4,429 nucleotides of DNA, taken from IMG/VR virus record IMGVR_UViG_2706794688_000003; one strand, 5' to 3'. The DNA is from a virus. Lineage: Duplodnaviria; Heunggongvirae; Uroviricota; Caudoviricetes. The position numbers and the translations under genes were made by a program. The notes beneath the pieces were generated by a model that did not search any database, was not told the origin of the DNA, and saw only the letters and a list, made by a program, of their open reading frames with translations. Below are positions 1 through 4,429 of this stretch, piece after piece. Each line of letters opens with the position of its first letter. Within the stretch, counting starts at the first letter, position 1.

Positions 1-13
1 GTCCAATGTGCAT

Positions 14-48
14 AAAAAAATCCGGAAACAAGTGAGCGTTTCCGGATT
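14..48 (-). terminator. Rho-independent terminator downstream of the portal gene
   Basis: Minus-strand RNA would read AAUCCGGAAAC-GCUCACUU-GUUUCCGGAUU followed by a U-run (7 T in the DNA, of which the first two can pair in the stem). That is a 9-11 bp stem with a GC core and an 8-nt loop, about 30 nt after the portal stop. Confidence 0.6.
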
Positions 49-80
49 CTTACACAGCCACTGGATCGGTCAACTGATCC

Positions 81-1328
81 TTAACTGATCGGCATTACAC
101 CACCGGGACGCGGATTCATATCTTCCAGGTCGCGGCAGTCATTGGAAGAGTAAATTCCCCAGTTGATCCCGGTGGCGTAGGCTTCAAAACGGGACTTCAT
201 ATCCCCGCGCAGTAACGCCCCGGCGTTAAATTTGGCGTAATAAACGCCCTGCTTACTTTTTCGTACCAGTCCGGTGTTGATCCGCTGTTCGATGCGGGTC
301 AGATACGGCACCAGTGAATAGTTGATAAATCCCAGCCCCAGCTCTTCGATATTGTTGAAGGTGGCGCGATCGGTGTTCTGCACCATGTGCAACGGCACCC
401 GGAACAGACGACAGATTTCTTCCAGCTGAAACTTGCGGGTTTCCAGGAACTGACTGTCCTCGGCGTTCAGCGCCATCGACTTCCAGTCCAGCCCCATTTC
501 CAGAATCATCGGGCGGTGAGCATTGCCAAGCCCCGTGTGACACTCCTCAAAATCTTTCTTCAGACGCTCGTAAGCATCCGGCGTGAGCTTTTGTTCCGTA
601 CGCAACACACCGGATGTCACCGCACCATTACTAAACAACCTGGCACCGTGCTCCTCGGTTGCCGCTGCCAGTGAAATGGCCTCACGCGCATACGCAATGG
701 GATTCAGCCCGACAAGTCCATCCAGCGTCAGGGTGCGCACATGCCAGATTTCATTCTGGGTCAACACATCCACGGAACCATCCGGAAACGTCACCTGATA
801 AACCGGCTGCCACTGGCTGTTCAGCTTCGGTTCCACACAGCCCGGATCTATCGGAAGAAGCTCCACCACTTCTCCCAGTGCCTTTACCTTGTAGGCGTAA
901 AAATTCCCCCGTAGACACAGGCAGACAATAACCAGCTCCCAGAATTCCTGCGGTGTCATGTAGCCATTAGGTTTTGCCGAAACCAACTTATGCAGTCGTT
1001 CATCCACCGCCCGTGTTTTCAGGGTACCGCTGATTTTGTAGAGACTGCAGGGCAGCATACCAACAGACTCTGCCAGCACCCTGACGCAAGAATAGACCGC
1101 CGTCAGGCGCATGGCCCGCTGGCTACTGATCCGCTTTCCGGTATAGGTGTCGTATGACAGCCCGATAGCATCAGCAGTTCTGCTGGCGTGGTCACCGGCA
1201 CATCGCTTTTTCGTTGAAATAATCCCGAAAAGAACACTATTTACCTCCGCCGACAGACTGCCGTGTACGGTCGAGATATCGCGCCACCAGCCACGACCAG
1301 AACAGGCACAGCGCCCCGGCAACAACAA
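81..1328 (-). CDS. Phage portal protein, HK97 family; the 5' end and start codon are uncertain, with a possible frameshift near the N-terminus
   Basis: Long minus-strand ORF with portal-typical motifs ([72 protein letters not shown]). The listed ORF starts at TTG, not ATG, and overlaps the upstream 60-aa gene by 92 nt. The first in-frame ATG is at 1112. A better-placed GTG at 1237 is in a different frame. Stop TAA at 81-83. Confidence 0.85.
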
Positions 1329-1419
1329 AACCCGCCGGGGGATAAATCAGCCAGGCACCATACGCCAGCAAAAGCGCACCCAGCACGCCCACCAGAGGCG
1401 CGAGAATCAGCATGATCAT
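1237..1419 (-). CDS. ymfR: Small two-helix membrane protein between terminase and portal; probably YmfR-like (e14 prophage)
   Basis: 60-aa [63 protein letters not shown] with an ATG start and a good SD, lying 11 nt after the terL stop. It has two hydrophobic helices followed by a basic tail. Its stop (TAG 1239-1237) overlaps a GTG that looks like the true portal start. The ymfR assignment rests on my recollection that E. coli K-12 e14 carries a 60-aa ymfR between its terminase and portal remnants, and I have not verified the sequence. Confidence 0.6.
1244..1248 (-). promoter_or_regulatory. Shine-Dalgarno (GGAGG) in front of a candidate GTG start for the portal gene
   Basis: Minus strand reads GGAGGTAAATAGTG; GGAGG is 6 nt upstream of the GTG at 1237-1235, which overlaps the upstream gene's TAG stop. 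Confidence 0.45.
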
Positions 1420-1423
1420 AATT

Positions 1424-1428
1424 ACCTC
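1424..1428 (-). promoter_or_regulatory. Shine-Dalgarno (GAGGT) for the small membrane-protein gene
   Basis: Minus strand reads CTGAGGTAATTATGATCATG; the SD sits 4-5 nt upstream of the ATG at 1419. Confidence 0.5.
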
Positions 1429-1430
1429 AG

Positions 1431-3164
1431 TTAAAGCGAGCGGATCCCGTAGGACTCAATGTGGTCAGACAGCGTGTCTTCTTTCTCGTACAGCATGGCT
1501 CTGCCAACCGCCATAATCAGCGCAACTGCACCATCGATTTTGTTTTCCGCCTGCTCTTTGACGGGTTTCACCACATCATCGTTACCCGGCATGTTTTTGC
1601 CGACCACGTTGCCGATACACCAGGTCATGATGGGATTGCCGTCATGATGAAAACGTCCCGATTCAATCGCTGCTTCCAGCTCTTTCATCGGATCGGACAT
1701 ATTGGTGAAGTTCTGGACGATAGTGACGGGATTCAGGTCTTCATCAGCAAGGTCATGTGACAACCCGGTCGCCCCGAAGGGGTCGATGGGTGACTCACTG
1801 ACCGGGCTGATTTTGTTCGCCGCTTTGGCCTCCTCGAGGATGTAGCGATAATCCACCTCCGCACCATCGGTAACGGTCAGAACGCCCATTTCCACCCATT
1901 TCTGAAAGCGTTCGGCTGTCCGTCGATCTTCATTTTTCTCGACGCTGTACACCGTGTCATACGGTACCCAGAAACGCGGGGCCACACTGTAGTAATGCGT
2001 TTTACCGTCAATCTCGCGGGTATAAAGTCGCGCCATGCTGTTCATATCCAGCTTACGCGCCAGGTCAAAGGCCAGAATGCACGGCTGCCCCTCGAACTGC
2101 TCAAGGGTCAGTGATTTATCCTCGCAGCTCTGCCAGCTCACCAAGTTGAAATACGCCGAACGCGCCGACACCCAGATATTGAGGTGTTTTGTTTTAAAGA
2201 CGTTTGCCAGACGGGCGTTATTTTTCGCACGCTGCTGCTGACTTAACAAAAATTCGCGATAAACCGACACGCCAATATTTGGATTGGCTTTTTCCAGCAC
2301 CTGCGGGCCGGTCCAGTCGTCACCTTCATCAACGGTATAGATGATCCCGAACAGTTCATCGTTAGGCACCGAGCCGTTGAGCATCTCGATGACTTCCCGC
2401 CGCTTGTCGTAGCACGGCCCCTCAATGTTGTACCCGGCGGTGGTGATGGCCCACATCAGTGGCTGACGTCGCGCCCCCATCCCGGTAAGCATTGTGGTAT
2501 AAAGCGCATCGGTGGCATGCTCGTGATATTCATCAACCACGGCACAGTGGGGTGATGAACCATCACCTGGGTTGCCGATCAGCGGTTCAAACCGCGCGCC
2601 ATCCTCCGGACGGTTCATGTTTGAGGCGTTAACCTCAATCCCGAACGCTTCCGTCAGCATGGGTGTGCGTTTACACATCAGTCGCGCCGGGCGAAAGACT
2701 TCCCACGCCTGTTTCTCTGTCGTGGCACCGGAATACACTTCCGCGCCAAACTCGTTATCACAGGCAAAACAATACAGGGCAACACCGGCAGAGATTGCTG
2801 ATTTGCCGTTCTTACGGGGGATTTCGGTGTACACCTCCCGGAAGCGGCGCAACCGGGTGCCTTTATTGACCCAGCCAAACGCACAGCAGATCACAAATAG
2901 CTGCCACGGCTCCAGCGTGATGGGCATCCGTTTGAATGCCCACTCCCCCTTGGTGTGCGGCAACAGCTGAATAAATTTCGCGGCCCGTTCAGCCAGGTCC
3001 TTGTCGAAGCGGTAACGAAACGACTTACTTTTTTCCGCCATCAGGTCATCAAGATGGCGCTGGCAGGCCTGAATCACAAACTGGCAGGCAACAATCTTTC
3101 CGCGCACGACATCCCGGGCATACTGATTTGCAGCATTTACGTTGGGGTAAGATTTCCGGCTCAT
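1431..3164 (-). CDS. Terminase large subunit (Terminase_1 / HK97-like type)
   Basis: 577-aa ORF with an ATG start at 3164-3162 in an ATGA overlap with the terS stop. It has a Walker-A-like EIPRKNGKS motif in the N-terminal ATPase domain and a C-terminal nuclease-like region. Position after HNH and terS and before the portal is canonical. Stop TAA at 1431-1433. Confidence 0.93.
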
Positions 3165-3543
3165 GATTCGATAATTTTCAGAAACGGGTTAGTGGCTTTC
3201 TTCTGCCCCGCCAGGCCAATCAGACGCTGGCGGCTGCTGGGGTCGAGTCCGAGCATTGCCCCCGTGCTGCTCATCTCGGACTCCTGTTCTTTTTTGGCGG
3301 TCAGCTCCGGATTTTTGACCCTGCCGCCCATTGCACCGGTGATGGTGTTGCCCTGTATGGCAATATTTTTCACGGCACGTCGCCAGAACTCATAGGCCAC
3401 GCACCACCGCTCAAGTACCGCCAGGTCAGTCACGCACAGCAGGCCCTGACCGCAGAGTTCTTTGGTTGTCAGTTGCCACATGATCGTGGCGAGAGGGAGA
3501 TCTTCTTCAGCGAACCACTCTGGTGGCTCAACACCTTTGATGG
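3161..3543 (-). CDS. Terminase small subunit (P27 family / Terminase_4-like); 5' end lost in the N run
   Basis: The visible C-terminal 127 aa ([126 protein letters not shown]) match the P27-family pattern P.W...A...W..L...L...D...L..YC, NPEL and GL.PSSR.RL. Stop TGA at 3161-3163 overlaps the terL ATG. The family is usually about 150-170 aa, so the start should lie in the gap. Confidence 0.8.
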
Positions 3544-3788
3544 NNNNNNNNNNNNNNNNNNNNNNNNNNNNNNNNNNNNNNNNNNNNNNNNNNNNNNNNN
3601 NNNNNNNNNNNNNNNNNNNNNNNNNNNNNNNNNNNNNNNNNNNNNNNNNNNNNNNNNNNNNNNNNNNNNNNNNNNNNNNNNNNNNNNNNNNNNNNNNNNN
3701 NNNNNNNNNNNNNNNNNNNNNNNNNNNNNNNNNNNNNNNNNNNNNNNNNNNNNNNNNNNNNNNNNNNNNNNNNNNNNNNNNNNNNNNN
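3544..3788. other. Run of 245 N (assembly or scaffold gap, or masked sequence)
   Basis: Continuous n characters from 3544 to 3788. The six-frame track translates them as X, fusing two unrelated genes into one 287-aa ORF. Confidence 0.99.
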
Positions 3789-4024
3789 TTCGCCTCGCTC
3801 ACCACACCGACACGCAGACACAACTGACACAGACCTTTATCGCGCTTCAGAATACGGGCACGAATCACCGTCCATTTTGAGCCATAGCCACGCTGGTGGC
3901 GGCTCAGTCCGCGCTGGTGCTGCACCCAGCCTTCACCGCGATGTTTATCGCAGTAACCCGAACTGTCTGTGGTTGTACCTGCACATCCACGCTTACGGCA
4001 GGCACGTGGGATTAGTGATGGCAT
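3789..4024 (-). CDS. Phage HNH endonuclease, terminase-associated; 3' end lost in the N run
   Basis: ATG at 4024 with a GAGG RBS. N-terminal 78 aa MPSLIPRACRKRGCAGTTTDSSGYCDKHRGEGWVQHQRGLSRHQRGYGSKWTVIRARILKRDKGLCQLCLRVGVVSEA has a Cys-rich zinc-binding N-terminus and the RGYGS.W...R..IL.RD..LCQ.C pattern that precedes the catalytic HNH motif in phage HNH nucleases. The catalytic motif itself would fall inside the Ns. Confidence 0.78.
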
Positions 4025-4066: not shown

Positions 4067-4429
4067 CTACTTAATGCACTGAGTGCGGATATACTCCTGT
4101 GCCCCTTCCAGTTGCATCTGCATCGTCATCAGCCGCTCTCTGAGGGTGAAATAATCCCGTTCAGCGGTGTCTGCCAGTCGGGGGCTGGTTGCATTATCCA
4201 CGCCGGAGGCGGTGGTGGCTTCACGCACTGACTGACAGACTGCTTTGATGTGCAACCGACGACGACCAGCGGCAACATCAGCGCGCAGAGTTTCATTTTC
4301 AGCTTTCGCATCAGCTAACTCCTTCGTGTATTTAGCATCGAGTGCATTAACATCACGCTGTCTCTGCTGCATGTCAGTAATGGTTGCGTTCGCCAGCTTC
4401 AGTTCTCTTGCGTTTTTGTCGCGCTGCTC
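4067..4429 (-). CDS. Rz: Rz i-spanin (lysis protein), 5'-partial: the reading frame runs open to the window edge
   Basis: Minus-strand translation ...[120 protein letters not shown] is near-identical to phage lambda Rz as I recall it. The frame stays open upstream of the ATG at 4372 to position 4429, so the real N-terminus lies outside the window. Stop TAG at 4067-4069. Confidence 0.9.
4129..4311 (-). CDS. Rz1: Rz1 o-spanin, outer-membrane lipoprotein, fully embedded in the +1 frame of Rz
   Basis: 60-aa [63 protein letters not shown] with an ATG start. It has a signal peptide plus lipobox (LVVVG-C), a penta-proline stretch, and close similarity to lambda Rz1, and it lies wholly inside Rz in another frame. 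Confidence 0.85.

Follow-up and report, generated by a model that had tools for sequence, protein, structure and literature searches.

An IS4 left end with its transposase leader hairpin at the truncated portal gene of a defective Shigella sonnei prophage

The DNA analyzed here, a stretch of 4,429 nucleotides from an IMG/VR virus record that is called the window below, carries all of its genes on the minus strand, as judged from the list of open reading frames and from direct reading. Its phage genes and the element that follows them are given below, starting from the end distant from position 1.

4067-4372, minus strand: Rz/Rz1 lysis pair.
3544-3788, minus strand: N-masked stretch between an HNH endonuclease gene and a small-terminase gene.
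1431-3164, minus strand: large terminase gene (577 aa), with the exact protein found in S. sonnei chromosomes including CP000038.1.
1237-1419, minus strand: gene for a ymfR-like small membrane protein (60 aa), with E. coli homologues annotated as ymfR.
81-1237, minus strand: portal pseudogene, assigned by alignments to E. coli A36, SfIV and L020 and by Pfam PF04860.
98-109, minus strand: 12-bp IS4 target sequence GTCCCGGTGGTG, one copy of the duplication and the last phage-derived DNA.
1-97, minus strand: left end of IS4, cut by the window edge, 100% identical to the K-12 IS4.

The head/packaging module was related to the e14-type ymfR region according to the annotations of its E. coli homologues, and an earlier note on this DNA had likewise suggested an e14-like prophage. 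Phages SfIV and SfII and Salmonella phage ST64B shared 94-95% DNA identity with the window over TerS-TerL-portal as well as the same upstream gene order; the order of the SfIV/SfII/ST64B/e14-type ymfR module is HNH, TerS, TerL, YmfR, portal, protease, capsid. The exact large-terminase protein was present in many S. sonnei assemblies, including Ss046 (CP000038.1), and served as the handle for finding source genomes. Positions 1-1450 of the window were identical to S. sonnei Ss046 and to the S. sonnei locus L007. The masked stretch 3544-3788 corresponds to 9377-9621 of L011 in an identical S. sonnei copy, where it contains the HNH stop, a GC-rich inverted repeat (GGGGCGGGGCA...CTGCCCGCCCC), a run of seven T and the start of the small-terminase gene. 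In HK97-like phages the cos site is expected at this location, between HNH and small terminase. Because the N-run fuses two genes, the 287-aa open reading frame listed at 3161-4024 is an artefact.

Intact homologues of the portal protein, from E. coli A36, L020, L105/L106 and the functional Shigella phage SfIV, are 413 aa long and continue past the motif ...PRPGG for 33 further residues (DVYLTPMNMTTSPSAGDDNGKKKESGDADKTAS). Alignment of the window portal to these proteins showed that the 33 native C-terminal residues are missing and that five IS4-encoded residues, (V)MPIS, stand in their place; the earlier suspicion that this C-terminus is abnormal was correct. Across the junction the portal frame reads GGT GGT G/TA ATG CCG ATC AGT TAA, in which IS4 provides part of the valine codon, the codons for M-P-I-S and the stop. 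The frame thus enters the IS4 terminal repeat for five codons (V-M-P-I-S-stop) and ends at TAA 83-81 on the minus strand, after which the same strand continues with GGATCAGTTGACCGATCCAGTGGCTGTGTAAGAATCCGGAAACGCTCACTTGTTTCCGGATTTTTTTATGCACATTGGAC. The Pfam portal domain PF04860 was complete (profile positions 2-321 of 321, E = 2e-107), and IS4 took away only the variable C-terminal tail. The gene carries a further lesion near its other end. Its authentic start is a GTG at 1237-1235 on the minus strand, and in comparison with SfIV and two E. coli prophages one nucleotide is deleted between 1176 and 1175, which shifts the frame at about codon 21. As a result, the frame from the authentic GTG stops after 44 codons (44 aa). 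The deletion, which lies in the stretch identical to Ss046 and L007, was common to all S. sonnei copies examined, and no portal frame in the window runs unbroken between the authentic start and the native stop. In the intact relatives (SfIV, E. coli A36, L020, L105/L106), the portal gene overlaps the prohead protease gene, the major capsid gene follows, and there is no intergenic hairpin. Compared with the SfIV-type module, the window has a portal gene that is frameshifted and lacks its last 33 residues, and no protease, capsid or tail genes come next.

Phage-derived DNA ends at position 98, where homology to the intact portals of SfIV and the E. coli prophages also ends exactly. A comparison of window 1-1500 with 5,426 complete E. 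coli genomes yielded prophage portals of up to ~94% identity; among the matches listed, nearly all began at 98, with a single start at 87, and in no case did the match extend to position 1. When used alone, window 1-140 matched ~3,260 E. coli records that carry the annotation "IS4 family transposase". In a BLAST search of phage records these first 140 nucleotides were split, 1-102 matching IS4 copies inside lambda-type phage records and 98-140 matching portal genes (SfIV, ST64B and others). The 18-bp repeat TAATGCCGATCAGTTAAG at 97-80 on the minus strand was identical to the K-12 copy, in which it bounds IS4 at both ends; the K-12 element reads TAATGCCGATCAG...CTGACTGGCATTA and has an 11-bp direct repeat on either side. 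Since several independent comparisons agree, positions 1-97 were assigned to IS4 (E. coli K-12 insG; IS4 family, IS4 subgroup), whose left end they reproduce base for base, and not to the phage. Only transposase codons 1-4 fall inside the window. In locus L007 the same ATG opens a 442-aa open reading frame with the domains PF13006 Nterm_IS4 (3e-33) and PF01609 DDE_Tnp_1 (8e-32), and the full element there spans 13068-14493, i.e. 1426 bp. Within the IS4 end of the window, the following features were distinguished.

80-97, minus strand: IS4 left terminal inverted repeat, 18 bp, encoding (V)MPIS and TAA 83-81.
46-73, minus strand: promoter-like site, with -35 TTGACC at 73-68, a 16-nt spacer and a TG-extended -10 AAGAAT at 51-46.
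19-48, minus strand: IS4 leader hairpin, with 5' arm AAUCCGGAAACG at 48-37, loop CUCACU at 36-31 and 3' arm UGUUUCCGGAUU at 30-19.
14-20, minus strand: seven-T run, directly 3' of the hairpin and directly 5' of the transposase ATG.
1-13, minus strand: start of the IS4 transposase gene (insG), ATG at 13-11 (MHIG...), with the remainder beyond the window.

The earlier note had described a stable hairpin with a U-tract about 30 nt after the portal stop, and this description was accurate: the hairpin begins 32 nt past the stop, has a 12-pair stem and is followed by seven U. The free-energy calculation proposed in that note gave -15.5 kcal/mol for the core stem-loop (48-19). In its 49-nt context the hairpin folded at -21.4 kcal/mol, a z-score of -5.8, with no equally stable fold among 200 shuffled sequences, which means that the terminator-like anatomy is real and not due to chance. 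A stem-loop with a direct U-tract is the structure of an intrinsic (Rho-independent) terminator. A simple terminator scan did not report the hairpin, which may reflect that maximal extension of the stem consumes the T-run via A-U pairs. An Rfam scan at E ≤ 1 gave no match for the hairpin region; its sole hit, a mir-200 match inside the terminase gene, was regarded as chance.

The anatomy of the hairpin and its position 32 nt past the portal stop codon would suit a native intrinsic terminator of the phage that ends the terminase-portal transcript. However, the stop codon and the hairpin both lie in DNA that is 100% IS4, the homology to every intact portal stops at 98, and SfIV and the intact prophages have overlapping portal and protease genes without a hairpin between them. 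Among 5,426 complete E. coli genomes and 50,697 phage records, no case was seen of the exact hairpin after an intact portal without IS4 repeats or transposase. That the hairpin is a phage terminator has virtually no chance of being correct, and the earlier note's reading of it as the terminator of the portal gene does not stand. Its alternative suggestion, that the hairpin has another role, was the right one. The hairpin is a feature of IS4, situated between the terminal repeat and the transposase start codon and identical to that of the K-12 copy.

Two arrangements were found past window position 1. In the first, a full IS4 is followed by raiA-pheL-pheA-tyrA-aroF; in the second (Ss046-type), IS4 is cut by IS2 and followed by bamE-recN-nadK-grpE. 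No protease or capsid genes were found in ~7-8 kb past IS4 in ten S. sonnei loci from complete chromosomes. The inspection beyond position 1 that the earlier note had advised therefore led into IS4 and then into chromosomal genes, and its proposal of a truncated head module in a defective prophage was borne out by the lost C-terminus, the frameshift and the lack of protease and capsid genes in the ten loci. In Ss046-type genomes the IS2 end that interrupts IS4 lies at ~14190 of L011 (TGGATTTGCCCCTATATTTCC...), and in other S. sonnei strains a complete IS4 is joined to the raiA upstream region, the same locus thus occurring in two chromosomal arrangements.

The flanks of IS4 in L007 differ from each other, with CAGCCCTTGAGCTG... 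on the right and ...GTCCCGGTGGTG on the left, and share no duplication. Because the flanks are unlike, this IS4 copy must have been rearranged and now joins two unrelated regions; such flanks are the expected product of IS4-IS4 recombination or deletion. There is no sequence difference from the known IS4, and what sets the S. sonnei closed-genome copy apart is the lack of matching flanks, together with the interruption by IS2 in Ss046-type strains. The reciprocal junction was present in one IMG/VR scaffold, L019, as GGCATTA/GTCCCGGTGGTG/ATGTCTATCTC... (also given as /ATGTCTATCTCACACCGATG...), with the portal 3' end and the protease, capsid and tail genes next to it. Over its first 2442 bases, L019 matched the window at 99.9% without gaps. 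The reciprocal junction points to a simple IS4 insertion with a 12-bp duplication as the founding event. Target-site duplications of IS4 are typically 11-13 bp, with 11 bp in the K-12 copy, and the original insertion would fall within this range.

L019 also has irregularities. At 2818-2845 it carries an 'n' followed by the IS4 hairpin with an inverted loop, and a 386-bp portal/protease segment is duplicated at 99.2% identity, which indicates either that the assembly broke at the palindrome or that two prophage copies were collapsed. Because of the 'n', the duplicated segment and the inverted loop, only the right-hand junction of this scaffold was used as evidence. IS copies commonly break or mis-join assemblies, and with such an artefact at the hairpin in L019 the portal-IS4 junction itself might be thought an assembly chimera. 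This possibility is negligible, since closed S. sonnei chromosomes produced by independent projects share this junction, as do five IMG/VR contigs. The latter were the result of a scan of viral contigs for the exact junction, and the same scan of genome contigs gave no match. Because all five end inside IS4, they are uninformative about its far side. When the missing head genes were sought in S. sonnei, with the L019 protease as query and its cluster members considered, the only hits were intact E. coli prophages and a single fragmented assembly that is probably rich in errors.

The window thus belongs, with a probability of roughly 95%, to a defective lambdoid prophage of S. sonnei whose portal 3' end was cut by IS4, with later rearrangements at the site, and the hairpin is the leader of the IS4 transposase gene. 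In the most probable course of events, IS4 inserted in the portal 3' end, at the codon after ...PRPGG, and made the 12-bp target duplication; later rearrangements between insertion sequences joined the far side of IS4 to unrelated chromosomal DNA, as a result of which the protease, capsid and tail genes are no longer next. IS4 is one of five insertion sequences that have expanded in all Shigella species (PMC7373316), where expanded insertion sequences give rise to pseudogenes and to rearrangements (PMC7373316, PMC8072062). An IS4 junction in a decayed prophage is in this respect already known and ordinary, a further example of insertion-sequence-driven prophage decay in Shigella that has little importance beyond correct annotation. 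For annotation, it illustrates that the end of an insertion sequence can pass for the terminator of a gene while giving that gene a spurious C-terminus and stop codon.

Independent IS4 copies had similar flanks, with AATCCGC just before the duplication both in K-12 and here. The sites compared were window 98-116, L002 2598-2620, L007 14494-14520 and the flanks of the aligned relatives; the flanks of IS4 relatives resemble terminator palindromes adjoining A or T runs. Such similarity is in keeping with the report of strong target specificity in the IS4 subgroup (PMC2266710).

To return to the leader, the promoter-like site upstream of the hairpin had 9 of 12 consensus matches plus the TG in a consensus scan, and transcription from it is predicted to start near 40-38, inside the 5' arm. 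In the same scan, the 24 nt that separate the -35 from the terminal repeat contained no other promoter-like site. The only Shine-Dalgarno-like sequence, GGA at 23-21, lies in the 3' arm. In folding calculations, a leader produced by read-through folded at -35.4 kcal/mol with AUG and GGA buried, whereas the 28-30 nt leader from position 40 or 38 was unfolded (0 kcal/mol); a longer native leader of 60 nt adopted a weaker alternative fold of -7.3 kcal/mol that involves GGA. Provided that transcription starts near 40-38, these calculations are consistent with a structure that only transcripts from outside would form.

The conservation of the leader was assessed by aligning the leader regions of 24 IS4-like copies, which came from ~20 enterobacterial species. 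In the stem, 97.5% of cells were paired, and the loop varied freely. Three aligned leaders had a compensatory double change from G-C to A-U, although this covariation rests on few independent events because most of the relatives are very similar to each other. At least six T stood directly before the ATG in all 23 IS4-like leaders, the 24th row (Phytobacter) having an unrelated upstream sequence. This Phytobacter sequence (L045 1-88) has a hairpin and T-run of its own (CCACCTGC...GCAGGTGG TTTTTT) and ACG instead of ATG. Two relatives with 49-51% protein identity have different stems, AAUCCAUAAUCA/UGGUUAUGGAUU and AAUCCGAUAUCAG/CUGAUAUCGGAUU, both of which are completely paired (-19 to -22 kcal/mol). 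The layout is retained in each of them: the terminal repeat, then TTGACCGATC, 16-17 nt, nAnAAT, the stem, T7 and ATG. TTGACC with nAnAAT 16-17 nt further on is thus retained at 49-51% protein identity, and even there the last T of the -10 is the first base of the stem (AATCC). Compensatory changes in close and in two distant relatives, around a variable loop, suggest that the stem is kept by selection. The outer helix of the long read-through fold, in which the AUG region pairs with 76-64, was 86% paired and broken in about 9 of the 24 leaders, and conservation is not claimed for it.

The inverted repeat could in principle act as DNA, either by binding transposase or a host factor or by forming a cruciform, its likeness to a terminator being incidental. 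Subterminal sequences of insertion elements often bind transposase, and three GATC sites and repeated GATCAGTT motifs lie nearby. Several features of the alignment make this very unlikely. The distant relatives keep the pairing and not the sequence of the stem, which argues against a sequence-specific protein site, and the invariant T-run fits an RNA terminator. G·U wobbles are found only on the transposase-sense strand: one stem pair is U·G in 15 of 24 leaders, and a second is G·U in 16 of 24. In a cruciform, as on the opposite strand, these frequent pairs would become A·C mismatches. The restriction of wobbles to this strand points to sense-strand RNA and not to a DNA cruciform.

Most likely, the hairpin shields the IS4 transposase gene from outside transcription, a role that we consider probable and that is the most economical model. 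A transcript entering from flanking DNA, here from the phage late operon, would carry both arms and form the hairpin, and it would terminate at the U7 run just before the transposase AUG. In a transcript that escapes termination, the GGA Shine-Dalgarno sequence would be buried, and in the longer fold the AUG too. IS4's own promoter would start transcription inside the 5' arm; with such a start, the native mRNA could not form the hairpin and could be translated. Because the -10 overlaps the base of the stem, only outside transcripts could fold it.

The main rival to this shielding role follows from a start further upstream, in which case the hairpin would attenuate the element's own mRNA. It would then act as a constitutive attenuator, combined with sequestration of the Shine-Dalgarno sequence, and keep transposase low. 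The hairpin and U7 end directly at the AUG, the only Shine-Dalgarno-like GGA is in the 3' arm, and the promoter was assigned from a consensus scan only. There is also a precedent in IS200, whose own mRNA carries an inhibitory stem-loop in the 5'UTR (PMC4513863). The fixed spacing of TTGACC and nAnAAT, however, with the last T of the -10 as the first stem base, places the start inside the 5' arm, and no other promoter-like site occupies the 24 nt between the repeat and the -35. Attenuation of the native mRNA is accordingly the less likely explanation, although it deserves to be taken seriously.

Shielding of the gene from outside transcription would have counterparts in other elements. Fold-back protection against outside transcription occurs in IS10 and IS50. 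For IS200, a left-end terminator that protects against impinging transcription is supported experimentally (PMC4513863). The likeness to IS200, IS10 and IS50 lies in a structure between terminal repeat and transposase start that would stop or silence outside transcripts, and the IS4 hairpin matches the IS200 type in its position, its U-tract and the Shine-Dalgarno sequence in the 3' arm. No sequence similarity or homology to the structures of IS200, IS10 and IS50 is claimed. The difference from IS200 is that IS200 has two separate structures, whereas in IS4 a single hairpin would be both terminator and Shine-Dalgarno trap, with the predicted -10 overlapping the stem base. In the literature searched, whose coverage did not extend to the original IS4 papers of 1979-1984, no study of leader or terminator function in IS4 was found. 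It is conceivable, at somewhat less than even odds, that such a single promoter-embedded terminator and Shine-Dalgarno trap is uncharacterised in the IS4 subgroup. The promoter-embedded layout, its stem maintained by covariation, is shared by E. coli IS4 and by relatives from marine gammaproteobacteria at 49% identity, and this conserved design of the leader hairpin is the sole mildly new element of the locus. A leader hairpin kept by covariation and foldable only by outside transcripts would be a small lead for transposon biology.

Two minor observations concern the IS4 end. Its three GATC (Dam) sites lie at 64-67, 76-79 and 87-90; one adjoins the -35 (TTGACCGATC) and another is inside the terminal repeat, and both motifs are kept at 49-51% protein identity. 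This placement suggests a possible control of IS4 by Dam methylation, a form of control that operates in IS10 and IS50. RefSeq starts the IS4 transposase at a TTG in the hairpin loop (29-31, minus strand; 448 aa) and not at the ATG 13-11 (442 aa). Of the 24 aligned leaders, 23 retain this ATG, which is preceded by GGA and seven U, and so do the two distant relatives.
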